From an uncultured Armatimonadia bacterium (lineage in GTDB: Bacteria; Armatimonadota; Zipacnadia; Zipacnadales; UBA11051), in contig CAZJVY010000008.1 in NCBI GenBank assembly GCA_964549395.1, positions 1,654-65,653 of the forward strand: DNA of 64,000 nucleotides, in the 5' to 3' direction. Numbering within the stretch: the stretch's first letter is position 1; every line of letters begins with the position of its first letter. A program made the translations under genes and the position numbers. Positions 4,524 through 49,073 of this stretch are shown piece by piece. A model generated the notes under the pieces. That model was not told the origin of the DNA and did not search any database. It worked only from the letters and a program-made list of their open reading frames with translations.

Positions 4524-5807
4524 ATGCACGAGATGACAAAACCTGCAGCGGACAAAGCCACACTGAAACGATTCGCCTGCGCGTCGGCCATACTTCTCGG
4601 CGCCGATGTGGTCGTATTCCGGCTATTGCTCCCAAATCGTATCTGGCTGGCCGACTATCCGATCCCTACAATTGACGCCAGCATAGCTGACTGGCTGTCC
4701 CTCATCGCTTGGCCCGCCTTCGCCGTCGCCGGGATCACCCTGTGGTTGCTGCCGCACATGAAGCAGCGCCCCCGCGAGGACTGGACACGGGCGCGAGTCT
4801 CGCTTTGGCTGCTGTTTTTCGGCTGCCTCATTGAGGGGCTCGCACGCACGTTGCTGAACATGCCGGTAATCGGCAACGGGGTGGCCATGCTTGGTTCCGT
4901 TATGCAGTTGGGCGGCACGATGCTTTATGTCGCTGCCATCTGGGCCGGGATTTCCCGCTCTCTACATCCGGCCGCCCGAGACGTGTTGTTACAGATGGGA
5001 GCAGTGTGGTTTCTTGTCTCGGTCGGCCTGCATTTCGCGTACAACATGAGCCTGGCTTTGGAATACACCGCCAGCGCCTATCTGCGTTCAGTTGACGCCC
5101 TGTACGCGGGATTCGCGCTGGGATTCATCGGGAACACCGGCCTGTGGCTGCTGACCTCGGTTATGCCACAGTTCCTGAATACTCGCGAGCCGCGCCCTCG
5201 GGTGATCAGCGGCGTGCTGACCTACAACGTTGTCTTGCTGTTGTGGGTGCTGGGCGAGGCCTGGGCGTTGCAGTATCCGTACACTTGGGTGCGTCTGCCG
5301 TTGGCGCTGGCCGGACTGGGAACCGCAGGCGTAACGATATACCTGTTGACCGATCTGAGCGCGTTCCGCTATCTCGGCGCGCAGGTGACCGCGCCGAGGA
5401 GAGTACTGGCCAAGGTGACGGCTGGGGCTGCCGTCGTGGGCATGGTGGCCAGCGTGGCCATAGTTGCGGCCATCGGCGTGTGGCTGGGGAGCACCAGCGA
5501 CGTCTGGGTCCCCAACATCAGCCACGCGCTTCAGGAAGTGCTGCGAGTGGGCGTGGGTACTTTCCTGCTAATGGCCATGTTCATCAGCTTTCTGGGGCCT
5601 AGAGCGGGGACGGGCGCCAGAGGCGGTGTGCTCTGGCTGGCTATAGTCTTAGTGACCGGGGGGCTAGTCACACAGGCTGGTGTCAACCTTCTGGTCCCAC
5701 TAACGGCTCTGGACCTGGGCCATATACAGAACGTGGCCGGCGGGGTACTAGCTGCCGGACATCTTCTGGTCGTAATGTGGCTGCTGGTCTCCGCGCCTAC
5801 TGCATGA
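4524..5807 (+). CDS. Hypothetical polytopic integral membrane protein (about 12 TM segments)
   Basis: 427 aa with multiple long hydrophobic segments and Trp/Leu-rich helices. No recognisable family motif. Confidence 0.45.
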   Translation: MHEMTKPAADKATLKRFACASAILLGADVVVFRLLLPNRIWLADYPIPTIDASIADWLSLIAWPAFAVAGITLWLLPHMKQRPREDWTRARVSLWLLFFGCLIEGLARTLLNMPVIGNGVAMLGSVMQLGGTMLYVAAIWAGISRSLHPAARDVLLQMGAVWFLVSVGLHFAYNMSLALEYTASAYLRSVDALYAGFALGFIGNTGLWLLTSVMPQFLNTREPRPRVISGVLTYNVVLLLWVLGEAWALQYPYTWVRLPLALAGLGTAGVTIYLLTDLSAFRYLGAQVTAPRRVLAKVTAGAAVVGMVASVAIVAAIGVWLGSTSDVWVPNISHALQEVLRVGVGTFLLMAMFISFLGPRAGTGARGGVLWLAIVLVTGGLVTQAGVNLLVPLTALDLGHIQNVAGGVLAAGHLLVVMWLLVSAPTA

Positions 5808-5889
5808 GACCCCGCATCATACTGCTTGTGCAATGAACCCCAAATCTACCCTTGCATTGAGCATTCCCTCGGTCCCTCGGCAAGACCGC

Positions 5890-6729
5890 CTAGAAGGTAA
5901 GGCGGCCCTTGAGCCATACTTCGTCGGTGTGTCGGCCGTATTGAACCTGGAAGGGGCCGTATTGGGCGGCGATGAACGTGACCTTCGGGGAATGGAGCAG
6001 AGGCGAGTCGCCGTGGGCGAGCCGACGCAGCTCCTTCGCCGTATTATCGAGGCTTATCAGTCGCTCGATAGCCTCGTCCCATGTCGTGGTCAGAATGACA
6101 TGGTCTGCATGCAGCAGCCTGCGCGTGTTCCTCGCAACCCAGTCGTGGCCCACAAAGTAGCGGTTGAGCGCTGTATCGAATGCTGCAATGGGTTTCAGAG
6201 TCACAACAGCCATGAGCGGGAAGTAGAGATTGCTGGCCGCGTAGGCATCACCCCGTCGCAGGGCGGCGATGACCGCTTCAGGGCTCAGTCGTTCCGCCAT
6301 GATCGCCGAATAGGGCAGACCGACGCCCTGCGCATAGCGCGTGTAGCTGGCGTAGAGAGCGGGCTTGTCAGCCAGTTCCGGATCGTACAGGATGGTCATG
6401 GTGCGGAACAGCTCGAATAGAGGGGGCTGGATGAAGTAGCCGTCCACATTAAGCCGGCGCAGCAGGTCCATCTTCCCCAACTCGCCGGGGTGATTGAGCA
6501 ACAGCGCCCCGCCCTGCATATGGACCTCGTGGATGGTGCGCTCGAACGTCATGCCCTCGGGGACGCGGTGTTGCAGGCCCACCGCAGTGACACTGCCGCC
6601 AAGACAGTTAATCCGCTCTCCGGCTATAACCTGGAACTCGGCCGGCAGCAGGCCTTTGCGCTTAAGTTCATCCGCTATGCGAGCAGCCTCCTGTGCGCCC
6701 CCAATCTGCCCGTGATCAGCTACCACCAC
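5890..6729 (-). CDS. PHP-domain (polymerase/histidinol-phosphatase-like) phosphoesterase, C-terminal portion, in frame with the upstream ORF across a TGA
   Basis: Sequence after the stop, GIDAVVVADHGQIGGAQEAARIADELKRKGLLPAEFQVIAGERINC, aligns with the PHP pattern GxxAIAITDHDTVAG...G(I/V)EVIPG(V)EIS. Metal ligands are partly substituted (DHD to DHG, E to R). See the finding at 5890-7653. Confidence 0.5.
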   Translation of the reverse strand: MVVADHGQIGGAQEAARIADELKRKGLLPAEFQVIAGERINCLGGSVTAVGLQHRVPEGMTFERTIHEVHMQGGALLLNHPGELGKMDLLRRLNVDGYFIQPPLFELFRTMTILYDPELADKPALYASYTRYAQGVGLPYSAIMAERLSPEAVIAALRRGDAYAASNLYFPLMAVVTLKPIAAFDTALNRYFVGHDWVARNTRRLLHADHVILTTTWDEAIERLISLDNTAKELRRLAHGDSPLLHSPKVTFIAAQYGPFQVQYGRHTDEVWLKGRLTF

Positions 6730-6741
6730 GGCGTCAATGCC

Positions 6742-7653
6742 TCATTGTGCGGCCAGCCGCAGCATGCGGGACATACTGACCGCAGTATCGTAGGAGAGAG
6801 AGGACCGCACGTGCAGATCAATGGCAAATGAGGTCTCGTCAGGCGTGACCTTCCAGAGGCTTTCGGGTAGGAGCTTAAGCACCGCGTCGGTCGCTACTTC
6901 GAGGGCGATGTCGTTGCGTAGGGCATTCTCACCAGCCAGGGCCCCGATGGCGGCGCTTGAGGCGGCTTCTGAACTGCGCCCATTGACAAGGAAGTGGGCC
7001 AGTGCAAGTGCCCAACGGCGCTGGGCTGCTGCGTGGTCGTGATTGAGGTAATCAATTTCGCGCCTGGCGATGTCGAATGGATTGCTGGTCAGGTTCTGTT
7101 CCAGCGGCCAGTACCCGAAGTACTCATCAGCGCAGAAGTCTGCAAGCGTCTTGCCAGGTTGGTGCTCGGGCCAGTAGTCGGGGCAGAACTCTATCGGTAC
7201 GCGGTGCTGGATGGCCAGGTCAAGCGGGGCGACCATGGTCGTCCCGGCAGGCAAGCGCAGGGCAATGGGCACTCCGCAGAGCGCAGCCGGTTGCCCGGAG
7301 GACAATGCCGACACGTCGTCCCATGGAGGCAGAAAGAGCGCGACATAGGGGTCGGCAGTGAGGCCGAGAGAAAGCTCACCGCGGGCGAGAGCGGCAAGAT
7401 CGGCCCCGGCGGTAACGAGGTCGCGATTCACAACGCCCCCAGCGTTGCAGACCACTGAGGCAACCACAATACTGGCCGCCGCCAGAGAGAGTATCGCGAC
7501 CAGCCGCCAGAGGATATCAAACGGAGGCTGAACGGGTGAACTATGGTCCGCAGAGGGTTTCAACGAGACACTCACCCGGCATTCGCACTTGAGCGCGTCT
7601 GGTGCCACAAGCACGACCGGGATGCTGAGAGCCCGGCCGCCGTACGGTGCCAT
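6742..7653 (-). CDS. Membrane-anchored N-terminal portion of the PHP-domain protein, ending at the in-frame TGA
   Basis: TM segment ILWRLVAILSLAAASIVVASVV, an extracytoplasmic region, then the PHP motif-I equivalent IDLHVRSSLSYDTAVSMSRMLRLAAQ (consensus DLHVHSxxSDG) immediately before the stop at 6742-6744. Confidence 0.45.
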   Translation of the reverse strand: MAPYGGRALSIPVVLVAPDALKCECRVSVSLKPSADHSSPVQPPFDILWRLVAILSLAAASIVVASVVCNAGGVVNRDLVTAGADLAALARGELSLGLTADPYVALFLPPWDDVSALSSGQPAALCGVPIALRLPAGTTMVAPLDLAIQHRVPIEFCPDYWPEHQPGKTLADFCADEYFGYWPLEQNLTSNPFDIARREIDYLNHDHAAAQRRWALALAHFLVNGRSSEAASSAAIGALAGENALRNDIALEVATDAVLKLLPESLWKVTPDETSFAIDLHVRSSLSYDTAVSMSRMLRLAAQ

Positions 7654-7680
7654 GAGAAAGTGTTGGTTCGGATGGCAGAT

Positions 7681-8274
7681 CTACTTGTCTTCTGACAGCG
7701 CCAATGGCTCCGGTTTCGGAAGAACATCAACCTGTCCGGCGAGCGTCCCCATCGGGATTTCGTAGGCCCGGCCCTGCGACTGATAGCCGAGCTTCTCTAG
7801 AGCCTGCGTGCTGCATTGGCGGACAAGTGCTGCGGGTGCCGCTCCGATCTTGGCACTCGTACCGGCCAGCAGCACCGTGACGGCTTGCCTGCTGCCGATC
7901 TCACCAAGTGTCCACGCCGCCCATGCGCGGAATGGCTCCGCAAGGTGTGCGTTGCTGAGTATCTTGCCCACATCCTCCACGACCCGGTTGGGTGCCTTGG
8001 AATCCCTGCGCGCAATCTCGCGGCCCTTCTTCACGACTGCTACGGCTGCCAGGTCGGCCAGTTCGTCGTCCTTCTCCAGTACCCCCAGTAGCTGCTCGGT
8101 CGCCCGCGGATCCTTGACGTTGGCGAGCGCGTGGACGGCCTGGATTCTAGTCTGGATATCCTGGGACTGTATGTCGTTGCTGGGTTGCTCCATGGGATCC
8201 AGCGCGCACCCGCTCGCGATCAGCAACGGCAGGAGGGCACACAGGAAGGCGAGAGTCGTCAGATTGGAGCGCAT
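7681..8274 (-). CDS. HEAT-repeat (PBS-lyase type) lipoprotein
   Basis: Likely start MRSNLTTLAFLCALLPLLIASGC (lipobox LIASGC). Repeats of the type IQAVHALANVKDPRATEQL and FRAWAAWTLGEIGS. Confidence 0.55.
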   Translation of the reverse strand: MRSNLTTLAFLCALLPLLIASGCALDPMEQPSNDIQSQDIQTRIQAVHALANVKDPRATEQLLGVLEKDDELADLAAVAVVKKGREIARRDSKAPNRVVEDVGKILSNAHLAEPFRAWAAWTLGEIGSRQAVTVLLAGTSAKIGAAPAALVRQCSTQALEKLGYQSQGRAYEIPMGTLAGQVDVLPKPEPLALSEDK

Positions 8275-8326: not shown

Positions 8327-9298
8327 TTAGATGCCGAGCGGCCCAAGACTGGTCCTGGCTTCTTCGGCGGCCTCGCGTACCCAGTAGTGCTCGTCTCCCT
8401 CAGCTCTTGTTAGCACACTGTCCACCCGGTGCTTCGCGCCTTCGGGTATGAGTGAAGCCTTGCCAAGCGACTGAATGGCGGCGATGCGAACATCGCCGGC
8501 GCTGTCGTCGAAAGCGGCCAGGAGATTGTCCAGAATCACTGCCATCTGGTCTTCATTCTCGTTGTTGAGTGCGACGTCACCAAGTGCGTAGGACGCGGTC
8601 GCACGGACACGTTCGCTCGGCTCCGTATTCTCATGCACGGCGTCGCCGAGGGCTCTTATGCCATCATCAGTGCCGAGCCGGCCGAGAGCACGCGCGGCGG
8701 CGACCCGTAGGAAGAGCGAGGAGTCTTCCGGCGCTTCGGTCTCCGCGGCGGCTTCGCCTCCCTCATCGCCAGGCGGCTTTGCGGCTGGCGGCCGGGCGAC
8801 CAGTGCCTCGACCAGAGCCGCGACACTCCCCGCCTCACCCAAAATCCCCAATGACGCCGCAGCAGCGGCACGCACCAAGACGTCCTCGGACTGGTTGCGC
8901 AAGCTTTCCGTCAGGGCGGCAACCACGCCGTCGCCACCCAACTTGCCGAGTGCGATCGCGGCATCGCGCCGGACGAACTTGTCCTTATCGCTTTTCAGCA
9001 GGGGGGGAAGGAGGGCGCTGTCGGCGGCATCACCGCAAACGCCGATCAACATAACCGCCCGCGAACGGACCTGCGGGTTCAGGTTGTCGAGGGTCTCACT
9101 CAAGCGCGGCACTACCGAGCGACCGCGCGAACTGAGACCGTCCATCGCCTTGAGAACGGCGGCCGTATCGCCGCTGTCAAGGTCAACGAGGTACTCGGCG
9201 GTCTTCGCCGCTCGCTGATAGAGGGTGATGCCATAAATGGCGCCCACTATGATGACCAGAACGATGATTATCATGACCGTTCGTGCATTCACCAGCAT
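8327..9298 (-). CDS. Membrane-anchored HEAT-repeat protein
   Basis: N-terminal TM MIIIVLVIIVGAIYGI. Multiple HEAT_2-like repeats (VRSRAVMLIGVCGD, VRRDAAIALGKLG, VRAAAAASLGILG, VAAARALGRLG, VRIAAIQSLGK). Confidence 0.6.
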   Translation of the reverse strand: MLVNARTVMIIIVLVIIVGAIYGITLYQRAAKTAEYLVDLDSGDTAAVLKAMDGLSSRGRSVVPRLSETLDNLNPQVRSRAVMLIGVCGDAADSALLPPLLKSDKDKFVRRDAAIALGKLGGDGVVAALTESLRNQSEDVLVRAAAAASLGILGEAGSVAALVEALVARPPAAKPPGDEGGEAAAETEAPEDSSLFLRVAAARALGRLGTDDGIRALGDAVHENTEPSERVRATASYALGDVALNNENEDQMAVILDNLLAAFDDSAGDVRIAAIQSLGKASLIPEGAKHRVDSVLTRAEGDEHYWVREAAEEARTSLGPLGI

Positions 9299-9362: not shown

Positions 9363-11981
9363 TCAGTACTTCTTCAGCAGGCGCAGCTTGTCCGTGAGCC
9401 GCAATGCGGCAGCGCGTCTGTCTTCGTCAGGCTTCTCGTTGTCGGGAATCTGTTTCAGGGCCTGGAGAGACTTGGCGTCGCCGATGCACTCCATGGTGAT
9501 GGCCAGCCACGCGCGCTGGTCCGGATCCTGTGCTCTCATTCGCGCGTCATAGACCGGATCAGTGGCATATCGTCCGATCCCGCCAAGGGTGGCGGCGAGC
9601 CAAGGCTTGATGTCATCCGGGGCGGCCTCAAGCTGTCCCACCAGGTCCTTGACTGGACTTGCCTGCATCATCGCCAGTCCGACCGCTGCCTGCACACGGA
9701 TACTGTCGGAGTTGTTGGGATCGGTCAGGACTGTTATGAGCGACTTGCCCGCCTCGCTGAGTTCCTCGCCCGCCTCCTTGTCCTCCTCCACGGGGGCTTT
9801 CATGCCGATCAGGGCTACAGCCTGGGCTGCATCGGCAGCGTACTCGCCACCGGCCTTCAACAGACGACTGAGAGCCTCTACGCCCTGCGTATATCCCATG
9901 GTCCCAAGCGCGTTGATGGCGCCGTGGCGCACAGGGGGCGCAGCGCCCTCATCGGCAGCGGCCTGGGACAGTAGCTGCCCGATCTTGCCCGCGAGAGTCT
10001 GGTCCAGCCCCGTCTCGCGCACGCCGCCGATCTCCGCCGCCTGGGTGTCGCCCGCACTCGTACCGCTCAGGACAAGGGCTATCGCCGCGCGGTACTGCAG
10101 GTCCTTGTCTTGCGTCTTCTCGGCCAAGCGTGCTAGCTGTGGCTGCGGGTTGCTGGCACGCCACTGGCTGAGAGCAGTCATTGCCGCGTCACGGACCTGG
10201 GGCGAAGACGCCTCGAGGCCCTTCAGCAGTAGGTCAACTCCGTCACCGGAAGCGATTTGGCCGACGGCGCCCATTATCGCGGCGGCCACAGCAGGCTCGG
10301 AACGGGAATATGCAGTCTGCAACGGTGGGAGGGCATCCTTGCTCCGAGTGCGCCCCAAGGCGTTAACTGCCGCCCGCCGAACAGCCGCCGGCTGGGCCTG
10401 ATCGGAGAGGACCTTAGCGGTCGGCTGTACCGCATAGGCACCCAGCTCGCCGAGGGCGATTGCAGCCCACTTGGCGAGGTCAGTCTGGGTTTGTGCTTGC
10501 TTGATGGCTGCGACCAGGCTGGTAACGGCCGGCCGCCCGATGCGCACCAAGGCCTGTTGCGCCATGTGAGCGGCGCGTACATCACTACTGCCCATCGCCT
10601 GCAGCAGCGCTGGTATTGCTGCAGGACCGCACTTGCCCAGAGCGTCGCGTGCGGCATAGTATACATGCCAGTCGGCATCATATAGCGCTTTGGTCAATGG
10701 CCCTATGATCGTCGCAGCGTGGGCGATCAACTGGGTGTCTGTGCGAGCGCGGAGGGCCTCCGCGGCGGCTCGCCGGACCGCCGGATCAGCAGATTTCGAG
10801 AGGGCCTGCGCCAGCGGCACAACTGGCGCTGGGCCGCCGATGTTGGCGAGCGCACGCACGGCAAGCAGTTGCACCTGACCGGACGGGTCGGCGATCGCCC
10901 CTGCAAGGGGGCCCACGGACGCCGCACCAAGCCGCTCGATGGCGCGGACCAACTCGTCCGCAATGCCCTCGCGGTTGCCTATGAGCGCCTGCACAAGCGG
11001 ACCGGCGGCGGCCGGGTCCCCCAGCTTTCCGAGGGCCTCGGCAACTGCGGCACGCACATCGGGATGCTCGTTGGGGTCCTGCAAGCGCGCGATTAGGGGG
11101 GCCGTAGCGCCATTGTCGCGGGCGTCCGGACCCAAAACGCCGATGGAGGCCGCGGCCTTGCGGCGGACTGCATAGCTAGTGTCGCTCTGGAGGCGGCCGA
11201 GCAGTGACGGAACCACGATTGCCACTTCCTCGGGGGAGAACGATCCGCCGAGCAACGTGACCCCGACCCCGCGCGTATCGGAGTTGGGGTCGGTGAGCAA
11301 TTCGCCGATGATTGCGGGGAAAGCGACGGCCTTCATCGCCTGCAGTGCGGCCTGGGCGGTAGCTCTCTGTCGGAGGTACTTCTCCGCTGCCTCCGGATCC
11401 TCACTGCCGGTGGGGGCGGGCTCCTTGATGACCGCAATGAGTTCGTCTATCGCCGGTTCGCCGACGCCGCCCAGCACGGCACTGACGCCGGCGCGTACAT
11501 AGTCATCCCAGGCGTCCATCAGGGGCAACAAATAGGGAATCACCGGCTCGCCTATGGCGATGAGGACAGCATTGACCCCTTTGCGCGTGTTAGCGTCCTT
11601 GTCTCTGAGCGCCTCCACAAGGGTCGGTATTGCGCTGTTGCCGGCACTGATGAGCAGGTCCGTGGCGCGCTGCTGCACCGGGGCGTCCAAAAGATACCAG
11701 GCAGTCAGCAACTGGTACCATGCTTGCGCCGTACCGATCTGTGCAACGGCCGCGACAGCACGTTCCTGAACCCAGCGTGGCTGGTCCTTCATAGCGTCCG
11801 CAAGAGCGCGGCCGTCAACAAGCTCCCCGGCGGCTGCTAGCTGTTGAGCCGGCGTTCCGTTGGCAAGGCGATCCTGCAGATCGGCCATGCGGTGGCTGCG
11901 ACCGACCGCCCAAACGATGACAATGACAATCACCGCAGCAGCTACTATCCAGTTTACTTGCCGTCTGATGCTTTCGTCCAC
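9363..11981 (-). CDS. Large membrane-anchored HEAT-repeat protein (872 aa, about 20 repeats)
   Basis: N-terminal TM WIVAAAVIVIVIVWAVG. Repeated AVRRAAAEALG / VRAAVAEALGKLGDP / VRRKAAASIGVLGP units. First gene of the minus-strand operon that runs to 5890. Confidence 0.65.
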   Translation of the reverse strand: MDESIRRQVNWIVAAAVIVIVIVWAVGRSHRMADLQDRLANGTPAQQLAAAGELVDGRALADAMKDQPRWVQERAVAAVAQIGTAQAWYQLLTAWYLLDAPVQQRATDLLISAGNSAIPTLVEALRDKDANTRKGVNAVLIAIGEPVIPYLLPLMDAWDDYVRAGVSAVLGGVGEPAIDELIAVIKEPAPTGSEDPEAAEKYLRQRATAQAALQAMKAVAFPAIIGELLTDPNSDTRGVGVTLLGGSFSPEEVAIVVPSLLGRLQSDTSYAVRRKAAASIGVLGPDARDNGATAPLIARLQDPNEHPDVRAAVAEALGKLGDPAAAGPLVQALIGNREGIADELVRAIERLGAASVGPLAGAIADPSGQVQLLAVRALANIGGPAPVVPLAQALSKSADPAVRRAAAEALRARTDTQLIAHAATIIGPLTKALYDADWHVYYAARDALGKCGPAAIPALLQAMGSSDVRAAHMAQQALVRIGRPAVTSLVAAIKQAQTQTDLAKWAAIALGELGAYAVQPTAKVLSDQAQPAAVRRAAVNALGRTRSKDALPPLQTAYSRSEPAVAAAIMGAVGQIASGDGVDLLLKGLEASSPQVRDAAMTALSQWRASNPQPQLARLAEKTQDKDLQYRAAIALVLSGTSAGDTQAAEIGGVRETGLDQTLAGKIGQLLSQAAADEGAAPPVRHGAINALGTMGYTQGVEALSRLLKAGGEYAADAAQAVALIGMKAPVEEDKEAGEELSEAGKSLITVLTDPNNSDSIRVQAAVGLAMMQASPVKDLVGQLEAAPDDIKPWLAATLGGIGRYATDPVYDARMRAQDPDQRAWLAITMECIGDAKSLQALKQIPDNEKPDEDRRAAALRLTDKLRLLKKY

Positions 11982-12065: not shown

Positions 12066-12351
12066 ACCCGCCGAAGGTATGCCCTCCGGCGATAACAGAA
12101 CGTAGTTCCCCGGCGTCATGCGGAATTCCTTCTCCACGACCAAAGCTTTACCTGCCGGACCAGAGAGGAATCTGCCGATCACCAGGCAAAATAGATAGTA
12201 CCGCTGAATTATAGAGCCGATGGCGGGTGCTGGCAAGGGGCAAACGTGGCGGAGTTATAGTGCCAGAGACCTTGTGCTGCGGGCCGTACTGCGGGCTTCA
12301 GGGGCGCCGGGGCGGCGTCCTCACCGGCGCTGTCGAGAGGGTTGGTGACCT

Positions 12352-13366: not shown

Positions 13367-16300
13367 ATGGGCGAGGTCAAGGTTCTCTGCGGTCCTCCGG
13401 GCTGCGGGAAAACCGAAGAGGTCGTGCGCCGCTTTGTAGGGCAGGTACAGGCCGCCGGACTTGATTCGGCTGTGCTGCTGGTGCCGACGAGTCGCATCGT
13501 GCGTGAGATTTCGCGCCGCCTGCTCGCCGATGGTTCTCTCAGGGGGCTCGTTGACGCTCGCATTCTCACCTTCCCACAGTTAGCGGATCAGCTCCTGCGC
13601 GCCAATCATGCCCTTGCGCCGGAACTCAGTCCGCTACAACGCGAAATGTTGATGCGCCTGGTAATCAACACAATTGCGGCGCACGACGGCCTCAGGGCAC
13701 TGGCAACTTGTGCGCGCACGCCCGGGCTGGCGCGGGCGCTGCTCGGGCTTATTGATGAACTGAAGCGTGCCGCAATACGGCCGGACGAGCTTGCTGCAGG
13801 ATTGAAGAAGGTCGGCCTAAACCGGCCACTGGATCGCGAATTGCGTGCCATCTACAGGCGGTATCAGGCCCTGCTCGCCGACAGAGCGCTATACGACGCG
13901 GCAGGCAAGTTCTGGGAAGCCAGAGACCTGTTGCGGGACGGGCAGATTGCCCCATTTCAAGGTATGAGACACCTCTTTGTTGACGGGTTCGCCGACTTTA
14001 CGACTACTGAGCTTCAGGTGCTCACGCATCTGGCCTCGTTCGCTGAGGGAACAGTCATCACACTTCCATACAGCCCTGATGAGAGGAGAGATGAAGTCAG
14101 ATGGCTTCCGGAGCAGACTCTGCGGCGTATCCGGAGCGATGACATGATGCCCGCCGCAGTCTGCGAACCGGTACTGCCAGGAGAACCGTGCGATGACGCC
14201 TTGGCTTTCGTGCGCCGGCACCTCTTCGCCCTTGCTCCGCCGGCGGCGCCCGATGGCTGTGCCAAGCAGGTCCGATTGACCGTTGCCGACAGCATCCGCG
14301 CAGAGCTTCGGGCTATCGCTACTCAAGTGAAGACGCTTTTGCTGGACGGTGTGGCGCCTGCGGATATCTGCGTTTCGTTCCGGCAGCCCCACAGACACAG
14401 AGACCTGATTGGCCAGGTCTTCGGGGAATGCGGCGTGCCATACCATTTCTCTGCAGAGGATAATATCGCCGGCCAACCGCTGGTGCAATTAGTGATGAGT
14501 CTGCTCAGAATCGCTACGGGGGATTGTGACAGGAACGACATCATCAGCTTCCTGCGCAGTGAAGCAGCAGACCTGAGGTGTCTGCAAAACGAGCAGGGAG
14601 AGCCGGACAGCGATACCGTGTTTGCCGTCGCATGTCGCGCCGGAATCGTGCGCGGGCGCGACCAGTGGTCCAATGGCCTCAGGTTATACAGACAGCGCCT
14701 GCTGCGACATCTGACAGCTATCCGGCAGCGCCGTGACGTGGACGAACTGGACGACGACCTGCGCGCGATGACCGACCCGGAACGAGTGGAGGCGGAACTG
14801 CGAAGGGTGGAGGCAGTGGAGAACCTGCTGTCTCGGCTTCTCGAGCAGTTGGACAGGCTGCCTCGCGCTGCAACTCTCTCTGAGCACATCAGCGCCCTGC
14901 TGAGGTTGATGGAGAGCTTCGGCCTGTCGCCTGACAGTCTGACGGAGGGAGCAGCGGCCGTGTGGCTGAGCCGCGATAATCTGCGGGCATTTGACAGCTT
15001 CTGCGAGGCGTTGTGGGAGTGCAAGCAGATAGCGGGATGGCAATCCGGCCGGCAGCCGGTAGCCCTGGCTGAATTCATTGAGCAGCTTGCCGTCCTGGTA
15101 CGAGCAGTACGTTTCCGGCCGGATCAGCAGGAGCAGGGACGCGTCAGAGTTCTGGATGTCTATGACAATCTGCGGCAGATGCGAGTTCCTTACCTGTTCA
15201 TCGCCGACCTCGTGCAGGGGGCATTCCCGCTGGTTGACCGGGACGAGGTCTTCTACTCGGAGGATGAACGCGCCCTGCTGTCCGAGCAGGCCGGCTTTCA
15301 CTTGCGCACCAGGCCCGGCAACGAAATGGCGGAGGCATTTCTTTTCCACGAGGCTGTTTCGGCGGCTACGAAGCAACTGCATCTCAGCCATACGGCCTTC
15401 GGCAATGACGGCAACCCGGTACTGCCTTCACAGTACTTCGAGGAAGTGAAGCGGCTTCTGGGGGCGGACGCGAGTGCCGTATGTCACGCCGCAACCCGGG
15501 CCGATGATAGCATTGAGTTGGTCTGTGGCATTCGGCAACTGCGTGAGGGTGTGTTCTCGGGCATGTTTGCCGGCGACCGGCCCGGTGCCGGCGAGGAGGA
15601 GGTCCTCGCCGGCTACAACCTGCTGTGTGAGATTGACCCGGCCGTAACGCCGCGCGCAGCGCAGGCCGCACTGGCCGAAGCAGGCAGGTATAGCCGCGAC
15701 CCGTTCGACGCCTATGACGGCATCCTCGATGATAAAAGGCTAATCGCGCAACTCTCCGCGCAGTGGGGCGATCAGCACATTTACAGCGCCAGCCAACTTT
15801 CGGCCTACGGTTCGTGTCCCTTCAGGTTCTATCTGGAGCGGGTGCTGCGTCTTGAGAGTGTCACGGAGCCGGATGATGAGCCTGACCGGGCCGCCCGTGG
15901 CAGCCTGGCACATCGCATCCTGTCGAGATTCATGAATGAATGGATCAATGACGACAGTCACCCGGCGGCGCTCTTGGAGGATGACCTAGAGGAAGCGCAA
16001 GATACCCTTCGGCGGGTTGCCGATGAGGTGTTCGCGTGGTACGAACGCAGCAAGTTGGTAACCAATCAACGGCTATGGGAGATGGCGCGAGATCAACTGC
16101 GCGCAGACCTCCTGGCCCTTCCGCAGGCCGAAGCCGACGCGAATGCAGGTGCGGAAGGCGTGCAGTATGTGCCACTGATGCTGGAAGCGGAGTACGGCTA
16201 CAGAGACCAAGCGCCGGTGACGGTCACAGCAGATAGTCAGACGGTGAGGATCGGAGGTCGCATTGATCGCCTCGACCTGGTCGTTGGCGAAAGCGGCGAA

Positions 16301-16708
16301 CCGGTCGGGTTCGCGGTACTGGATTACAAGACTTCGTCTTCAGTACCCGGACGCAAGGAGCTTGAGGGCGGGCAGGATCTGCAGCTTCCCCTGTACATCA
16401 TGGGTGGAAGCGCGCTGTTGACGGATGACGGGCGGAATCTGCCGTGTCATCTGGGCTGCTATTACCAGATCCGTGGCGGCATCGCGAAGCGACGGAGCCA
16501 GATCGCGCTCGGGGCGCGCCTCGACCGCGACAGCATCGTGCAGGCGGCAGTGCGGCACGTCGTGGCCTTCGTACGGGCGATCCGGTCGGGGATATTCCCG
16601 GTAATGCCAGGCGGGGAGAAGTGGTGTGGACACTGCGATTTCGGGACCGTCTGTCGCCATGCGCCGTGGCGATGCCGGGACAAGCAGAGGGGGGCCGAGG
16701 TTGAATAG
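13367..16708 (+). CDS. addB: AddB-type helicase-nuclease subunit B (PD-(D/E)XK nuclease with Fe-S cluster)
   Basis: 1113 aa. Walker A GPPGCGKT. C-terminal nuclease LDYKTSS with Cys cluster C-x...CGHCDFGTVC...C. Confidence 0.75.
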   Translation: MGEVKVLCGPPGCGKTEEVVRRFVGQVQAAGLDSAVLLVPTSRIVREISRRLLADGSLRGLVDARILTFPQLADQLLRANHALAPELSPLQREMLMRLVINTIAAHDGLRALATCARTPGLARALLGLIDELKRAAIRPDELAAGLKKVGLNRPLDRELRAIYRRYQALLADRALYDAAGKFWEARDLLRDGQIAPFQGMRHLFVDGFADFTTTELQVLTHLASFAEGTVITLPYSPDERRDEVRWLPEQTLRRIRSDDMMPAAVCEPVLPGEPCDDALAFVRRHLFALAPPAAPDGCAKQVRLTVADSIRAELRAIATQVKTLLLDGVAPADICVSFRQPHRHRDLIGQVFGECGVPYHFSAEDNIAGQPLVQLVMSLLRIATGDCDRNDIISFLRSEAADLRCLQNEQGEPDSDTVFAVACRAGIVRGRDQWSNGLRLYRQRLLRHLTAIRQRRDVDELDDDLRAMTDPERVEAELRRVEAVENLLSRLLEQLDRLPRAATLSEHISALLRLMESFGLSPDSLTEGAAAVWLSRDNLRAFDSFCEALWECKQIAGWQSGRQPVALAEFIEQLAVLVRAVRFRPDQQEQGRVRVLDVYDNLRQMRVPYLFIADLVQGAFPLVDRDEVFYSEDERALLSEQAGFHLRTRPGNEMAEAFLFHEAVSAATKQLHLSHTAFGNDGNPVLPSQYFEEVKRLLGADASAVCHAATRADDSIELVCGIRQLREGVFSGMFAGDRPGAGEEEVLAGYNLLCEIDPAVTPRAAQAALAEAGRYSRDPFDAYDGILDDKRLIAQLSAQWGDQHIYSASQLSAYGSCPFRFYLERVLRLESVTEPDDEPDRAARGSLAHRILSRFMNEWINDDSHPAALLEDDLEEAQDTLRRVADEVFAWYERSKLVTNQRLWEMARDQLRADLLALPQAEADANAGAEGVQYVPLMLEAEYGYRDQAPVTVTADSQTVRIGGRIDRLDLVVGESGEPVGFAVLDYKTSSSVPGRKELEGGQDLQLPLYIMGGSALLTDDGRNLPCHLGCYYQIRGGIAKRRSQIALGARLDRDSIVQAAVRHVVAFVRAIRSGIFPVMPGGEKWCGHCDFGTVCRHAPWRCRDKQRGAEVE

Positions 16709-19700
16709 GCGATTGCCCCCTGACCAGAGCGTCCGCGACCAGGCGGTGCAGTTGGGGCGGGACGTGTTCCTTGCTGCGGGGGCCGGCACCGGCAAGACGA
16801 CCGTTCTCGTTGGCCGCTATATGGCCGCGTTGGAGGCTGGAATCAGGCCGCATGAGATCGTGGCCGTGACCTATACGGTTAAGGCCGCGGCGGAGATGCG
16901 CCAGCGGCTTCGCGAGAAGTGTGCGGAGAGTGTCGCTGCCGGAAACCCGGAGGAGGCCCGCCGTTGGCGACAGACTGCAAATGAGCTGGAGACAGCGCCG
17001 ATTTCCACGATTCACGGGTTCTGCGGCTCACTGCTCCGTGATTTCGCAGTCGAGGCCGGCCTGGACCCACATTACTCCATCATCGAGGAGCGGGCCACAT
17101 GGCTGCTGCGTCGCGGAATCGTCAGGCAGACGCTGCTGCAACGTCTAACAGATGGCGAGGAAAGCGCCGTCGCAGTGGTTGCTGAGTACGGTCGCCGCAA
17201 TGCGGAAGACCTGTTAGACGGCATACTACAGGGCCGCGAGCACCATGTGCGCCGGCTCGAAGCGCCCCCCTCGGTGGAAGACCTGCTCGCATACTGGAAC
17301 CAGATCCGGCCGATGCTTGTGGATGAATGCCTGCGAGATGTGCTGGATTCCGGCAAGGTCCGGGCCGCTTTGAACATTCTGGAAACGCACCCCCCTCATG
17401 TGGCTAGTGCTAAGTTCGCGGCTGAACGCCAGGCGGTGATGGCGGAAATAGAGCGGGCGCGCAGCGAAGCAGACGCCATGCGCCGCATTGCTGCGGCGAG
17501 AGCGGCGCAAGCGGCTGCGGCCGTACACAAGCGGGGCGGACGTGCCGACGACTGGGGTGCGGAGGAGACATTCAAGGCCGTCAAAGACGCGCTGAATGTG
17601 GTCAAGAAGCAGTTGGGCGATTTCTACGGCGAGCTTGACGAGCTTGAGGAGGCCGACTTCTCTCTGGCGGCGGAGAATACGGTCGCTTTCTGGCGCGAAG
17701 CGGCTGCGTGCTCCGATGCGTTTCAGGCCGCCAAGGCCGCCCAATCGCTGCTTGACTTCACCGACCTGCAACTCCAAATCGCACGGCTTCTGCAGGAGAA
17801 TGCGGAGGTGCGGAAGCGGTGCCGGCAACGGTACAAGCAGGTGATGGTTGATGAGTTCCAGGACACCAACGATCTGCAGCGCCAGATCATCTGGGCGGTC
17901 ACTGGGTTCGACAGCCAGAATGCCGAGCGCGAGGGACCACGTTTGTTCGTAGTAGGCGACGCCAAACAGTCCATCTACGGCTTCCGCAACGCCGACGTTG
18001 CGGTGTTTCGCCGAGTTCGCGTGGATTTCCGCGGTGGCTGCGATGGCGTGGATGAGCTGTTGCTGAAGGCCAGCTTCAGGAGCACGGACAGCCTGACATG
18101 CTTCCACAACTGGCTGTTCTCCCATGATGCGGTAATGGGCACGGGGGACAAGCCGGACTACGCGGCGCAGTTCGAGCCCGTGGAGACGCAGCGAGCGGCC
18201 AGAGAGGACGGGCTGGCGGGCGAGGTGCTCATCACCAACGTCCGCACCGGGGAGAATGCCGATGATGAGTTCAGCGCCGAGCGAAGGCGGGAGGCGGAGG
18301 CCGCCAATCTCGCGGCACGTCTCAGGGAGATGCTTGACCGCGGCTTCACCGTGACAGGCGAAGACGGTGAGCCGCGTCCGCTGGCCGGCAAGGACATTGC
18401 CATTCTGTTCCGCGCTACGACCAACATCAACCTGTACGAGCGAGCACTGCGTCGCCACGGCATAGATTTTCATACGGTTGTCGGCAGGGGATTCTGGTAT
18501 CGGCCCGAGGTCAGCGATCTTCTCAACATGATACGCGTGCTGGACAATTTCGGCGACGCGATAGCATTGGCCGGCGTGCTTCGTTCGCCTCTCTTTGGCT
18601 TCGACGACAATGAGCTGTACCGTGCTGCGAAGGCGGCAGATACTCTATACGCAGGCCTGTGCAGGCAGGGCGAGGGGGAGGACGGTGCGGAGCGGTCGAT
18701 GGGAGTGGTCGAGAAGGCATGGTGGGCTTGGCGGAAGCTGCAGGAGTTCCGGAGCCAATCGGCGGCGCTGCCGCTATCCGTGCTCCTGAGCCGGATCGTG
18801 GATGAGACCGGTTACTCAGCAGCGATGGCCGCACAGTTCGGGGGCCAGCGCCGAGTAGCGAACATCGAGAAGCTGATAGACGTGGCGCGCGGCTTCGAGC
18901 GCGAGGGCAGCTACAGCCTGCGTGACTTCGTCTCCTATGTCGAAACACTGCGTGAGATGGACGACCGCGAGGGAGAAGCGCCACCCGAGCAGACCGAAGG
19001 CGGCGCCGTCCAATTGCTGACCGTTCATCAAGCCAAGGGTCTAGAGTGGCCCGTGGTCGTCATACCGGACTTCGGCCGCGGGCCACGATCGGGGGGAGAG
19101 GCGTTGGTCACCTCAACCGTGTACGGCATCTGCGCACGCGTAGCAGAGGAGGACGGCGGCAGCACACAATGCGCCATTGGTCGGCTGATCAGGCAGGCTG
19201 AGGCCCACAGACAGCAGGCCGAAGAACAGCGTCTGCTCTATGTCGCCGCCACGCGTGCCCGCGACTACCTGATAATCTCAGCGGGAGTTGACCCCGACAA
19301 GAGCGGCCCGCACAGTGGCATGTGCGGATGGTTCGGTTGCCTCGCCGAGGCGGCCGGTTGGGATGCGGCAAGCATTGAGTGCGACGAGCTGGGCGATGGC
19401 CCCTGGCGCATGGCGGTCACCGTGGCTCCACCCGGCGAGTTGCCTCCGATGCAGGCCGCCGGCCAATCGCTGGCACAGCGGCACAAGGCCGCTTTTCTGT
19501 CTGGCACGCCGGTAGGCGAATACGCTGTCGGAGTGGCCACCCGCAGGCGGGTCGCGGCAATCCCAGTCATGACCACCGACTTCGCGAGAATGCCGGTCAC
19601 TGCCCTGGCGCAGTACCGACGCTGTCCGTTCTCGTATTGCCAGCGATTCGTCCGCGATATGCCCGAACTGGATGCAGGCTGGGGTCTCGGTCGTCTTGAG

Positions 19701-20318
19701 GAGGGCGCGTCAGGGGTGACGGTGGGCACATTCGCTCATCTTGTCTTGGAGCTCATCGGCAGAGAGGGAGTCGGCGCGATTGATCAGGCACTTGCGGACG
19801 CACAGAGCTCGCCCGCTGTCGGCGGGCCGCTTGCCCAACGGCAGGTCGAGGAAGTCCGAAAATGGCTCGAGACCTATCTGAACACGACGACTTATGATAG
19901 AATTATCGGCACAGCCAAGTACCTGCGCTCGGAAGTGCCGGCGGCGTTCGTCCTCGATGGCGTGATGATCGAAGGCAAGATTGATGCTCTGGCCCAGACA
20001 ACTGAGGGCTGCATGCATGTACTTGATTATAAGACCGGCAGGCCGGAGGACGCAGAGCAGCTTGGCTATGAGTTCCAGATGGGGCTGTACTGCGAAGCGG
20101 TGCGCCGAGTTCACGGCCAGTTGCCGGTATCGGCAACACTGATCCACCTGAGTGCCGGTGTCACCAATGAGCTGCCGGTAGCTGATGTGGTCGAGCAGTC
20201 GCTGAGCGAGGCCAAGCAGATCATTCACGCCATCCGAGCAGGGCAGTTTGGACACCGATGCGGGCCGCCATGCCAGTATTGCGGCTATGGGCTTATGTGC
20301 GAGTACCGTTGCGGCTAG
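16701..20318 (+). CDS. addA: AddA-type UvrD-family helicase-nuclease subunit A
   Basis: UvrD motifs GAGTGKTT and VMVDEFQDTNDLQ. C-terminal PD-(D/E)XK VLDYKTG followed by the Cys-rich tail CGPPCQYCGYGLMCEYRCG. The ORF is open from 16626, but the TTG at 16701 overlapping the addB stop is the likely start. Confidence 0.75.
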   Translation: MNRRLPPDQSVRDQAVQLGRDVFLAAGAGTGKTTVLVGRYMAALEAGIRPHEIVAVTYTVKAAAEMRQRLREKCAESVAAGNPEEARRWRQTANELETAPISTIHGFCGSLLRDFAVEAGLDPHYSIIEERATWLLRRGIVRQTLLQRLTDGEESAVAVVAEYGRRNAEDLLDGILQGREHHVRRLEAPPSVEDLLAYWNQIRPMLVDECLRDVLDSGKVRAALNILETHPPHVASAKFAAERQAVMAEIERARSEADAMRRIAAARAAQAAAAVHKRGGRADDWGAEETFKAVKDALNVVKKQLGDFYGELDELEEADFSLAAENTVAFWREAAACSDAFQAAKAAQSLLDFTDLQLQIARLLQENAEVRKRCRQRYKQVMVDEFQDTNDLQRQIIWAVTGFDSQNAEREGPRLFVVGDAKQSIYGFRNADVAVFRRVRVDFRGGCDGVDELLLKASFRSTDSLTCFHNWLFSHDAVMGTGDKPDYAAQFEPVETQRAAREDGLAGEVLITNVRTGENADDEFSAERRREAEAANLAARLREMLDRGFTVTGEDGEPRPLAGKDIAILFRATTNINLYERALRRHGIDFHTVVGRGFWYRPEVSDLLNMIRVLDNFGDAIALAGVLRSPLFGFDDNELYRAAKAADTLYAGLCRQGEGEDGAERSMGVVEKAWWAWRKLQEFRSQSAALPLSVLLSRIVDETGYSAAMAAQFGGQRRVANIEKLIDVARGFEREGSYSLRDFVSYVETLREMDDREGEAPPEQTEGGAVQLLTVHQAKGLEWPVVVIPDFGRGPRSGGEALVTSTVYGICARVAEEDGGSTQCAIGRLIRQAEAHRQQAEEQRLLYVAATRARDYLIISAGVDPDKSGPHSGMCGWFGCLAEAAGWDAASIECDELGDGPWRMAVTVAPPGELPPMQAAGQSLAQRHKAAFLSGTPVGEYAVGVATRRRVAAIPVMTTDFARMPVTALAQYRRCPFSYCQRFVRDMPELDAGWGLGRLEEGASGVTVGTFAHLVLELIGREGVGAIDQALADAQSSPAVGGPLAQRQVEEVRKWLETYLNTTTYDRIIGTAKYLRSEVPAAFVLDGVMIEGKIDALAQTTEGCMHVLDYKTGRPEDAEQLGYEFQMGLYCEAVRRVHGQLPVSATLIHLSAGVTNELPVADVVEQSLSEAKQIIHAIRAGQFGHRCGPPCQYCGYGLMCEYRCG

Positions 20319-43175: not shown

Positions 43176-43574
43176 ATGGCTCGAAAGGCAATCAACCCGC
43201 AGACGGTCTGCCGTCCCGTATCCCCGACGTATTCCCACGCCACCATAGCGGAGGGGAAGCGCCTGGTGTTCATCGCCGGGCAAGTGGCCACCGATGTGGA
43301 CGGCAACACTGTGGGCGATGACATCCAGACCCAGACCCGGCAGGCGTATGAGAATATCCGCCTGATCCTGGAAGCGGTCGGCGGCAGCATGAACGATATC
43401 CTCCACACCGACGTTTTCATGCTGAACGTGCAGCGCGACCTCCAGGGCTACCTGAGTGTGCGTAGAGAGTTCTTCCCCGACAATCCGCCGGCCAGCACCC
43501 TCGTCCAGGTGCAGGCGCTGGTGTCCCCGGAATACCTCGTTGAGGTGAAGGCCGTAGCGGAACTGGCCGGCTGA
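43176..43574 (+). CDS. ridA: RidA/YjgF/L-PSP family enamine/imine deaminase
   Basis: 132 aa. ...AGQVATD...YENIRLILEA...DILHTDVFM... follows the RidA-family pattern. Confidence 0.7.
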   Translation: MARKAINPQTVCRPVSPTYSHATIAEGKRLVFIAGQVATDVDGNTVGDDIQTQTRQAYENIRLILEAVGGSMNDILHTDVFMLNVQRDLQGYLSVRREFFPDNPPASTLVQVQALVSPEYLVEVKAVAELAG

Positions 43575-43916
43575 CGCAAGTCCCAGTGCCCCGTTTGCGT
43601 TCCGTCAGATGCCTTCGAAGCGCTTCACTATCCACCTCACGTATGACCTGTCCAGCCCGATCATGCAAAAGCCGCGGTGGTGTCCGGCATCTGAGGCAGC
43701 GCGTCGCGTGCACCGGCCAGAATGACCGTGTTGCGTAGGCACTTACCGGAAATGGATTTGGGCAGTTGCGTGACCTGCATGGATGTTCGCCATCACGGGT
43801 TACCATGAGCCGCCAAGGTCGGCAAGCAGGACGCGGGGATCTGATGGCGAAGCTCTAGGCCGCTAGGTCGTACCTCGGCACGGACGGTACTGCAAGAGAC
43901 TGCACGGAGGCGAAGT

Positions 43917-45545: not shown

Positions 45546-48500
45546 ATGTCCAGACAGACAATGACTTATCTGACCGCAATCAGTGTGTTTGTGGCGATCT
45601 CCATGGCTTGCGCCGAAGGTGAGCTCAGATGCATTCAGCAGCCGACATTCTGGATAGTCGGACAGCAGACACGGATCATGATCCAAACACCAGAGGATTG
45701 CGGGAAACTCGAGGTCACCCATCCGGATGGGCTCGAGCTTTTCGACCGCTGGCCCTACAAGGCAGGAGATACCACCCAGCGGTTCTACTTTCGCGCGCAG
45801 AAGCCGCTGGAGGCGGGGGAGATCCGGTTCAAGTCGGGAGGATACGAGCTATCTCTGCCGGTGCGGGTCCTATCCTGGGAGCAGGCGCTGACGGACGAGT
45901 TTGAGAGCGGGGGCTTCAAGCTGCCCCGCGTATTCCCTCTGGAGGGAAAGGACGAGCATAGGAGCGGACTGAGCTTTCTGACGCAAGAGTATGTTGATCG
46001 GTTCCGGCGCAGCGGCATAGGCGGAGCCGGCGGCGAAGAAGTCGTCTCGAAGCGGCTCGCAGAAGCCGAAGACATGGAGAAAGTATTCTACGCCTTGCCG
46101 GAGACGACGGTACCGCGCAGCGTGTATGTGAACCGCTACCCGATGACGGGCTGCCCGATATGCGGGAAGAAGGTGTTTGAGGGGCGTTCAGGGTTCTACC
46201 CGTGGACCTTGGACTACGAGAATCACCCGTATCAACTGCAGTGCCCCGAATGTGGGCGCTGGTTCCCTACGAACGACTTCGCCTCCGGCGACATGGCAAG
46301 CGGCGAATTTCCCGACGACGGCTGGTGCTACTTTGCGGACGATGGCACACCGTATGGTTTCGTGGCCTACTATTGCTGCTGGTACTACATGAACCGCTTC
46401 AGGAACCTGCCTTATGTCTACGCGAATATGTACGCGTGTACGGGCGACAGGCGCTTGGGGCGGGCGGCGGCATTGACGCTTTTCCGTCTGGCCGAGCAGT
46501 ACCTGAATCTCGCACTTAATGTCAATCAGCGCAAGGCCTACACCCGCGAGGCCCTGTGGCGAGGCGGAATTGTGCCGCAGGGCACACCTGCGGTGGACGG
46601 AGGATGGTACTACGTTGAGGGCAACTGGGAAGTTCCTCTGGTGGGACTGTACGCGCCCGCGTTCGAGTGGATATGGGACTACTTCGACGAAGATGACCCG
46701 GAACTGATCCACTTCTTGCAGCAACATCACCACCCCGAGATCAAGACGATGCAGGACGTGCGGCAGTTCATCGAGACCGGCTACTTCCGCGTTGTGGCCC
46801 AAGGCTGCCTGGACCGCACCATCGTGGGCAATCATCCCCAGGGCCAGCGCGCCGCGATGGAGCTGGCACTCGTCCTCAACAGCTCACGCTCGCACGAGAT
46901 CGTGGACTGGACCTTCAATGGCGCAGGGGGGATGCGCTACTTCCTCACGAACGAGTTCTTCATAGATGGTTCGGCCTTCGAGGCTCCCGGATACAACCGC
47001 GGCCACTACATCAATACGCAGGAGATTGCGGATTTGATGGATAGAATCCGCGGCATGCGACCTGACGATTACGAGCATGCCGGATTCCCCTTGCTGGCAG
47101 ACGATCCGAAGTACAAGTACATGTATGACTTCAACATCAACTACAGCCTGATTGGCCGCACTTGCGCTCATGTGGGCGATTCCGGTGATGTCGCTCCGAC
47201 GGAGCCATGGCCGCTCCACCCCTGCTCGACCCTGTCGCGTCAAGACTACATCAAGCCTTTTCAGAAGTGCCCTGATAACGTCAACTTCGCGCGAGTGCTC
47301 TGGGACCCCGAAACCAATCAGCCCATCAAACAGCTTGCCGACGAGAAGCTGCGTGCAAAGGTGACCGAACTTGTCGAGAAGCACGGAGCAGAACTTGATC
47401 TGCCCAGCAACGTACTGGACGGCTACAAGCACGTCATATTGCGCAGCGGAGAGGGCGAGGACAAGCGCGCCTTGTGGATGCGGTACGGGCAGGCGTTCGG
47501 CCATGTGCACTACGATCAACTGAGCATCGGCTATGAGGCGCTGAAGCGAACACTGCTGCCGGAGCTGGGCTACTACAGGGGGGAAGACTACCGCACCGAA
47601 TGGGACATGAACTGGTGCATCCACTACAATGCGCGGATCGTCGGAGAGGATGTGAAGCCGGCGACCAGAGGCAACGGTGCTCTGAAGATGTTTGCCGACG
47701 GCGGCTGGGCGAAGATGGCGACCGCCATGGACCGCAAGCATGTAGTCGTGGACCCGCCGCAGCTCTACCAGATGCTCCCGGAGCAGATTAGGGAGCGCAC
47801 CATCGCGCTGGTGGACATATCACCCCAGCACTCCTACGCGGTGAGCATCTTCCAACTACATGGCGGCACAGATCATTACTGGAGCTTCCACGGGCCGCGC
47901 GGGACTGCCGAGTGCAGCGGCCTGAAGCTAACGGCACAGAATGGCGGGACGCTGGCCGGGCCGGATATCCCGTATGGTATTAAATGGGATTCAGAATGGA
48001 GCAAGGCAAACTGGGAGATCATGTGCTTTCCGTTCCTCTATGACGTGTACCGAGGCACGGCCGAGGGTATCTGGAGCATGGACTGGACGCTGGAGAACTA
48101 CCCGGACGTGCACATGCGGATGCACGCGATACAGCCCAGCGGAGCGGATGTGGGATTGGCAAAGGGCAAACCACCAGGCGGTGGCAAGCCCTACGAGCTC
48201 CAGTGGGCGGTGCAGCACACGAGGGGCGAGTTCCCGCTGAGCAGTTGCTTTGCCACAGTCATCGAGGCATACGAAGGCGAACCACTGATAACGGATGTGC
48301 AGCACCTGAATGTCAGCACGCAGGTCGCAGGTCAGCATTCCCCCGTTGCGTTCCGGATCACGTGCGGCGACCGGGTGGACACGATTATCTACTGCCGCGA
48401 TCCCGACGGACCTGTAACAACCGGCAATGGGATTACCATGCAGGGATCTCTTGGCATTTGGGCTGAGGTCGGGAACCAGGTCAAGGGTGTATTCCTCGCC

Positions 48501-49073
48501 AACGGAACCCGCATAGCTAAGGGGGAGAAGCAGTACACGCTTCCGACAGCCGCATGGTCCGGACAGATCGTGTCGGCGGACTTCACGGAACGCAAGCTAG
48601 TGGTGGCACCGCCTCACCCACAGCCCGAGGCGCTTGTGGGCCGTTACGCGCACATCACCAACGAGCAAGGAAATGATGTCACTCACTTGATAGTCGGGGC
48701 TCAGACGGTAGCTGAAGGCACGGAACTGACATTGGAGCTCGACCCTCGCATCGGCGAGGGTCCGGTGGTCGAGATACACGAGGACGGCATCACCTCCGGC
48801 ATGCAGCTCGTGTTCGGCGGCTATTTGTACTACCACGGGAAGACACTGAGCAATGAGGATGCTTCGGCGCTATACAAGATTAACGGGGTGAGGAGCTCGC
48901 GAGCATACATCAACACTCAGGTGCACCCGGACGCAGGCAAGGAGAAGCTGGGGATCGAATTCACGGATAGGGAGAACGACGGCAACGTGCGGTTCACCAT
49001 CTACGACTACGGCCCTGGCGATGCCGTTACGGTTCCCAACTTCATTTCTGTAGGCAACGCGAGCGGCGGCTAG
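45546..49073 (+). CDS. Secreted heparinase II/III-like (polysaccharide-lyase fold) protein with N-terminal Cys module and C4 zinc-ribbon-like insert, paralog 1
   Basis: Signal peptide MTYLTAISVFVAISMACA. Conserved LRCIQQPTFWIVGQQTRI...DCGKLEV; CPICGKKVFEGRSGFYPWTLDYENHPYQLQCPECGRWFP; heparinase-type GHVHYDQLS (HxHxDxxS); beta-rich C-terminal region of about 300 aa. Confidence 0.6.
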   Translation: MSRQTMTYLTAISVFVAISMACAEGELRCIQQPTFWIVGQQTRIMIQTPEDCGKLEVTHPDGLELFDRWPYKAGDTTQRFYFRAQKPLEAGEIRFKSGGYELSLPVRVLSWEQALTDEFESGGFKLPRVFPLEGKDEHRSGLSFLTQEYVDRFRRSGIGGAGGEEVVSKRLAEAEDMEKVFYALPETTVPRSVYVNRYPMTGCPICGKKVFEGRSGFYPWTLDYENHPYQLQCPECGRWFPTNDFASGDMASGEFPDDGWCYFADDGTPYGFVAYYCCWYYMNRFRNLPYVYANMYACTGDRRLGRAAALTLFRLAEQYLNLALNVNQRKAYTREALWRGGIVPQGTPAVDGGWYYVEGNWEVPLVGLYAPAFEWIWDYFDEDDPELIHFLQQHHHPEIKTMQDVRQFIETGYFRVVAQGCLDRTIVGNHPQGQRAAMELALVLNSSRSHEIVDWTFNGAGGMRYFLTNEFFIDGSAFEAPGYNRGHYINTQEIADLMDRIRGMRPDDYEHAGFPLLADDPKYKYMYDFNINYSLIGRTCAHVGDSGDVAPTEPWPLHPCSTLSRQDYIKPFQKCPDNVNFARVLWDPETNQPIKQLADEKLRAKVTELVEKHGAELDLPSNVLDGYKHVILRSGEGEDKRALWMRYGQAFGHVHYDQLSIGYEALKRTLLPELGYYRGEDYRTEWDMNWCIHYNARIVGEDVKPATRGNGALKMFADGGWAKMATAMDRKHVVVDPPQLYQMLPEQIRERTIALVDISPQHSYAVSIFQLHGGTDHYWSFHGPRGTAECSGLKLTAQNGGTLAGPDIPYGIKWDSEWSKANWEIMCFPFLYDVYRGTAEGIWSMDWTLENYPDVHMRMHAIQPSGADVGLAKGKPPGGGKPYELQWAVQHTRGEFPLSSCFATVIEAYEGEPLITDVQHLNVSTQVAGQHSPVAFRITCGDRVDTIIYCRDPDGPVTTGNGITMQGSLGIWAEVGNQVKGVFLANGTRIAKGEKQYTLPTAAWSGQIVSADFTERKLVVAPPHPQPEALVGRYAHITNEQGNDVTHLIVGAQTVAEGTELTLELDPRIGEGPVVEIHEDGITSGMQLVFGGYLYYHGKTLSNEDASALYKINGVRSSRAYINTQVHPDAGKEKLGIEFTDRENDGNVRFTIYDYGPGDAVTVPNFISVGNASGG

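Follow-up and report, generated by a model that had tools for sequence, protein, structure and literature searches.

We identified a single in-frame TGA codon that cuts a PHP-like gene in two in an uncultured Armatimonadota population, and it is very probable that this TGA is a real, recent nonsense mutation that inactivates the gene or severely reduces its output. The gene lies on the minus strand at 5890-7653 of the analyzed window, a 64,000-nucleotide stretch of one metagenome-assembled contig, where it follows three genes for HEAT-repeat proteins. We infer both the loss of function and the recency of the event indirectly, from the reading frame, the orthologs, the repeated occurrence of the stop and the state of the sequence behind it. 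The features of the gene are as follows.

5890-7653, minus strand: whole ancestral PHP-like reading frame, 587 codons including the internal TGA, followed by the terminal TAG (5892-5890).
6742-6744, minus strand: in-frame TGA, codon 304, at a position that is an invariant Arg in orthologs.
6745-7653, minus strand: upstream half, 303 aa, ATG start, with a hydrophobic helix, a family-specific helical domain, and strand beta1 and helix alpha1 of the PHP fold.
5890-6729, minus strand: downstream ORF, 279 aa from GTG 6729, with strands beta2 to beta7 of the PHP barrel and a C-terminal beta domain.
6064-6831, minus strand: PHP-fold domain, residues about 275-530, spanning the stop, as placed by Pfam, NCBIfam and Foldseek.
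7444-7521, minus strand: hydrophobic N-terminal helix, residues about 45-70 (helix 45-70 in the AlphaFold2 model), a signal peptide or signal anchor.
6740-6743, minus strand: GAGG, a Shine-Dalgarno-like motif that overlaps the TGA and lies 10 nt upstream of GTG 6729; putative re-initiation signal.

Read from 7653 to 5890 on the minus strand, the sequence consists of 303 sense codons, the TGA (6744-6742), 283 sense codons and a TAG, with no frameshift. The list of open reading frames reports two pieces instead, 6742-7653 (303 aa, ATG) and 5890-6729 (279 aa, GTG), and NCBI and JGI alike annotate the 279-aa downstream half as a separate gene. A preliminary description of this DNA had proposed one ancestral frame cut by a single TGA, quoting peptides that match the minus-strand translation exactly, and both the translation and the uninterrupted orthologs bear this proposal out. 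Its alignment of the PHP N-terminus across the stop was likewise sound: it is only on the fused protein that the Pfam PHP model (PF02811) passes its cutoff of 26.4 bits (score 28.0, E-value 3.2e-6), with a match at residues 279-343, which straddle codon 304, and neither half alone gave a match to the PHP models.

The orthologs reveal what stood at the site of the stop. One of the two outcomes that the preliminary description had named as speaking against its reading was orthologs made of two genuinely separate genes. A search of 5.8 billion proteins instead returned 17 orthologs (424-581 aa, 41-65% identity), all from Armatimonadota MAGs, each of them one uninterrupted protein spanning both halves. 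Their alignment is gapless at the stop column, and all 17 carry Arg there. At the nucleotide level, a scan of one genome per species gave 11 ortholog loci, all in Armatimonadota MAGs (Armatimonadia and Candidatus Zipacnadia). The preliminary description had also asked for a sense codon at this site, and automatic placement of the codon, which succeeded in nine loci, gave CGC, CGT or CGA each time, CGA being the codon of three (L005, L008 and L009). Since the orthologs include CGA, a single C-to-T transition separates the TGA of the window from an Arg codon in actual use in the family. One locus (L006) appeared at first to be a second disrupted ortholog, with a frameshift and three stops at about 9401-9413 of its record, and was rejected as such because the stored record carries a masked run of N there. 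The event cannot be dated against a close relative, since the nearest intact ortholog of the PHP-like protein is only 65% identical. Precomputed Pfam annotation was present for none of the 17 orthologs; the gene family is restricted to Armatimonadota and unannotated.

The preliminary description had left three explanations side by side: recent pseudogenization, a sequencing or assembly error, and programmed readthrough. An error, in which the true base would give a sense codon, is very unlikely, because the TGA recurs across different assemblies at a site that is not a homopolymer. Occasional base errors do occur in MAG and metagenome assemblies; however, the same TGA is present in three records, one NCBI contig (68,898 nt) and two JGI metagenome contigs (L012 and L013), which represent one near-clonal population and at least two separate metagenome assemblies, as the NCBI contig may share reads with one of the JGI contigs. 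All three encode the exact 303-aa upstream half, followed by the same stop. Identity to the window is 100% for L013 (2058 nt) and 99.95% for L012 (6266 nt), both with CAATGAGGC at the site, and the three mismatches of L012 all fall outside the PHP-like gene, within which the three assemblies show no polymorphism. A search of metagenome contigs for an intact allele returned a single match, L014, from a third JGI sample; it belongs to the same population (99.88% identical) and covers the last 97 residues only, ending short of the stop. As is expected of a nonsense pseudogene, the orthologs are intact single ORFs with a sense codon at the site, and the lesion is reproduced in three records. The in-frame TGA taken alone would also be compatible with selenocysteine insertion or a reassigned TGA codon, a reading that we consider extremely improbable. 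Selenocysteine is disfavored because the orthologs have Arg at the position, not Cys or Sec. The preliminary description had judged global recoding unlikely, and rightly so: in a greedy non-overlapping set of 42 ORFs from the window, about 18 end with TGA, 20 with TAG and 4 with TAA, and the genes closed by TGA include complete, well-characterized domains. One of them is the 872-aa HEAT-repeat gene of the same operon, whose C-terminus matches that of its orthologs. Every point in the window at which two long ORFs meet in the same frame was scanned, and only one more TGA between real genes came up, at 62252; it was rejected as a second interrupted gene or a sign of recoding, because it parts two complete and unrelated genes, one for a Gfo/Idh/MocA oxidoreductase and the other for a PfkB kinase. 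TGA is a normal terminator in this window and is not reassigned. The SECIS-like stem-loop that had been suggested as a check was also sought and not found, as the 111-nt segment 6760-6650, which contains the TGA and sequence downstream of it, folds less stably than shuffled controls (z = +1.69; minimum free energy -33.4 kcal/mol, shuffle mean -38.9), with 193 of 200 shuffles at least as stable. An Rfam scan of 5700-7900 gave one chance-level match and nothing meaningful.

Pseudogenization remains the best supported of the three original explanations, and the alternatives that deserve most weight are those in which the gene survives its stop, either through low-level UGA readthrough or as two pieces made by re-initiation at GAGG and GTG; taken together, we regard such survival as unlikely. 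The sequence behind the stop is where these readings meet. No second lesion occurs in the 283 codons after the TGA, and the window retains 52 of the 54 family-invariant residues downstream of it. The orthologs themselves deviate at 0-7% of invariant columns in a leave-one-out comparison, so the window, with 2 of 54, is no outlier. The replacements in the window are conservative, E493D and M533I after the stop and W221F before it, and third-position GC is 0.74 in the downstream half and 0.70 in the upstream half, with most neighboring ORFs at roughly 0.70-0.80. This undecayed downstream half fits a very recent inactivation or, equally, continued use. Continued use as a functional split, in which ribosomes would terminate at the TGA, re-initiate at GTG 6729 via GAGG and yield two pieces that reassemble, is suggested by the position of the motif (overlapping the stop, with the GTG 12 nt past the TGA), by the presence of Shine-Dalgarno-like motifs upstream of about 20 of 34 genes in the window, and by the call of a 279-aa gene from this GTG in both public annotations. 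We nevertheless hold it to be quite unlikely. The GAGG is a mere by-product of the CGA-GG sequence, and none of the orthologs is split. In the structural model, the break falls inside the barrel, between alpha1 (294-302) and beta2 (308-314), and since the sole export or anchor signal lies on the upstream half, a separate downstream half would presumably stay in the cytoplasm. Among bacterial stop codons, UGA generally allows the most readthrough, and with the downstream frame fully open and undecayed, a near-cognate tRNA or a suppressor encoded elsewhere in the genome could give enough full-length protein. This leaky reading appears decidedly unlikely to us. The stop occurs at this site in none of the orthologs, whose codons, where read, are all CGN, and therefore there is no conserved programmed signal of the family; programmed readthrough, the third original option, accordingly loses its footing. 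Nor was there a stimulatory structure at the TGA, a meaningful Rfam match in 5700-7900 or a tRNA gene in the window, and TGA terminates normally within the same operon.

Under the nonsense mutation that we favor, Arg codon 304 (CGA, or another CGN codon by way of CGA) would have become TGA through a C-to-T change in this Armatimonadota population. Ribosomes stopping at the TGA would release a 303-aa product in which the export signal and the N-terminal domain are followed by no more of the PHP fold than beta1 and alpha1, whereas the remaining six-sevenths of the barrel would not be made, or would be made in trace amounts only. A conserved envelope operon of four genes would then have its last gene inactivated or severely reduced in this lineage. 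Ordinary CGA-to-TGA nonsense pseudogenes and split genes likewise arise by one point change, keep their halves in frame and are annotated as two genes. The present case does not differ from them in kind; it is notable only in that the lost gene belongs to a phylum-conserved operon.

To characterize the protein, we built an AlphaFold2 model of the fused sequence from an 18-sequence alignment. The mean pLDDT is 62, and the core residues 275-470 score 70-92. The top 15 Foldseek matches in the PDB are all PHP proteins. The best of them is TM0559 (2anu), with an E-value of 6.5e-7 and a TM-score of 0.66 normalized to the target, and others include BVU_3505 (3e38), RNase AM (7ug9 and 9etk) and the PHP domain of PolC (3f2b). 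At the level of the predicted structure, the PHP fold of the protein is thus confirmed, and it is the same fold as that of the PHP superfamily (PF02811), in which the closest structures, 2anu and 3e38, are predicted metal-dependent phosphoesterases. Matches of the PHP region to designed-PPR proteins, returned by phmmer against the PDB, were discarded as spurious, since they sum matches of about 4 bits each to one 28-residue stretch. The best NCBIfam match is the CehA/McbA family (NF038032; 30.3 bits, E-value 2.7e-7, residues 277-393), and weaker matches are to other PHP families. The family cutoff is 80 bits, which the protein misses by a wide margin; it is therefore not a member, and we saw no sign of carbamate hydrolysis here. 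In comparison with the PHP superfamily, the protein carries an additional N-terminal export signal, a domain of about 170 aa with two conserved cysteines (Cys157 and Cys174, in the family-specific helical domain of the upstream half) and a C-terminal beta domain.

The metal site of this family departs from that of its superfamily. When the metal-ligand positions were mapped by motif, three residues were seen to be retained: the conserved Asp that precedes motif I, H388 as the His of the 'HP' motif, and D517, the late Asp. D279, D313, H388 and D517 are invariant in the family, a set of invariants that differs from the canonical PHP ligand set. In contrast, the HxH position (within residues 279-283, 6813-6821, minus strand) reads H281-V-R283 in the window, and the family mostly has R-x-S there; of the 17 orthologs, two have His at the first position and none at the second. 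The window does have H314, E346 and H518, but these positions vary across the family. The alignment also contains other invariants: GAQ (319-321), GLPY (445-448) and W525-D526. The preliminary description had listed three ligand substitutions, of which only the change of HxH to HVR is robust. In PHP motifs the residue after 'DH' is not a ligand, so the proposed change of DHD to DHG does not touch the site, and the proposed change of E to R hinges on shifting the alignment by one residue, as E346 is present beside R347. Judging from the aligned sequences, the lack of HxH suggests a family of pseudoenzymes or of proteins with a remodeled active site. This degeneracy predates the stop, because it is common to the whole family.

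The N-terminus is where the protein would be directed to the envelope. The preliminary description had proposed a transmembrane anchor, and a hydrophobic N-terminal helix is indeed found, but it need not be an anchor and may instead serve as a cleavable signal peptide. Where the N-terminus of an ortholog is complete, it carries in most cases a hydrophobic segment at the equivalent position, and several orthologs have short, classic signal-like N-termini. A membrane-tethered PHP protein had also been regarded as an unusual architecture, which it is not: McbA is periplasmic, with an N-terminal transmembrane domain and a signal peptide (PMC11302072), and provides a precedent for an exported protein of this fold. 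Additionally, the start codon of the gene is uncertain within 7563-7653 (minus strand). ATG 7653 has no Shine-Dalgarno-like motif, and one ortholog (P0002) starts with Leu, probably encoded by TTG, aligned to a TTG at codon 31 of the window (7563-7561). A start at this codon would give the PHP-like protein a shorter and more signal-peptide-like N-terminus.

The gene takes its place in a cluster with the following upstream features.

7681-8274, minus strand: HEAT-repeat gene 3, 197 aa from ATG 8274, with a lipobox-like LLIASGC.
8327-9298, minus strand: HEAT-repeat gene 2, 323 aa, with an N-terminal transmembrane helix.
9363-11981, minus strand: HEAT-repeat gene 1, 872 aa, with an N-terminal transmembrane helix, ending with TGA as in its orthologs.
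12208-12236, minus strand: sigma-70-like promoter match upstream of the cluster, TTGCCA-17-TATAAT, 11 of 12 positions (a consensus match only).

The preliminary description had placed the PHP-like gene last in a HEAT-repeat operon, and this placement stands. The three upstream genes match HEAT_2 with E-values of 8e-61, 1e-25 and 1e-9 and are intact in the window, and the PHP-like gene closes the minus-strand cluster because the next gene (4524-5807, plus strand) is convergent. The order HEAT872, HEAT323, HEAT221, PHP-like is kept in all 10 ortholog loci with enough upstream flank (L002-L011), and this conserved cluster spans MAGs of Armatimonadia and Candidatus Zipacnadia. An N-terminal signal, hydrophobic or of the lipobox type, is present in each of the four products. 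Terminator-like matches numbered 6 against 3.2 ± 1.8 in shuffles, which is not clearly above expectation, and none lies between the genes. A search of the literature returned no description of the four-gene cluster. The convergent ORF at 4524-5807 (427 aa) has no Pfam match, and its homologs (35-52% identity) occupy the same place on the opposite strand in five of the ortholog loci (L001, L003, L004, L006 and L007). It may be functionally linked to the cluster.

Several other regions of the window were recorded along the way. On the plus strand, 13367-16708 encodes a 1113-aa AddB-like helicase-nuclease with ADDB_N and PD-(D/E)XK nuclease domains, and the 1230-aa ORF that follows it (16626-20318, plus strand) is probably the AddA partner. 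Three consecutive plus-strand ORFs of 1175, 1179 and 1184 aa (45546-49073, 49248-52787 and 52821-56375) are candidate tandem paralogs. A 129-aa ORF at 43417-43806 (minus strand) has a third-position GC of 0.46 against roughly 0.70-0.80 in most neighboring ORFs, and is either not a real gene or compositionally foreign. At 58388-63364 (minus strand), the 370-aa Gfo/Idh/MocA oxidoreductase, the 359-aa PfkB kinase and a 905-aa protein without a Pfam match follow one another in one frame, parted by single stops and short gaps. Their shared frame is coincidental, because Pfam shows the first two genes to be complete and separate.

In summary, the finding is mainly a correction of annotation, in that two 'hypothetical proteins' of NCBI and JGI are the halves of one gene, and the event itself is ordinary, one more nonsense allele in an environmental genome. 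Its context is of slightly greater interest: a PHP-fold family whose metal site is largely lost and which always follows three genes for envelope-anchored HEAT-repeat proteins. Should the gene after all survive its stop, HEAT-repeat and PHP-like proteins would make up an envelope system found across Armatimonadota, its PHP subunit would be a pseudoenzyme without an HxH site, and in this population that subunit would naturally occur in two pieces or in reduced amount. If, as we consider very probable, the gene is inactivated or severely reduced, its loss in one natural population suggests that the PHP-like subunit is dispensable under some conditions.
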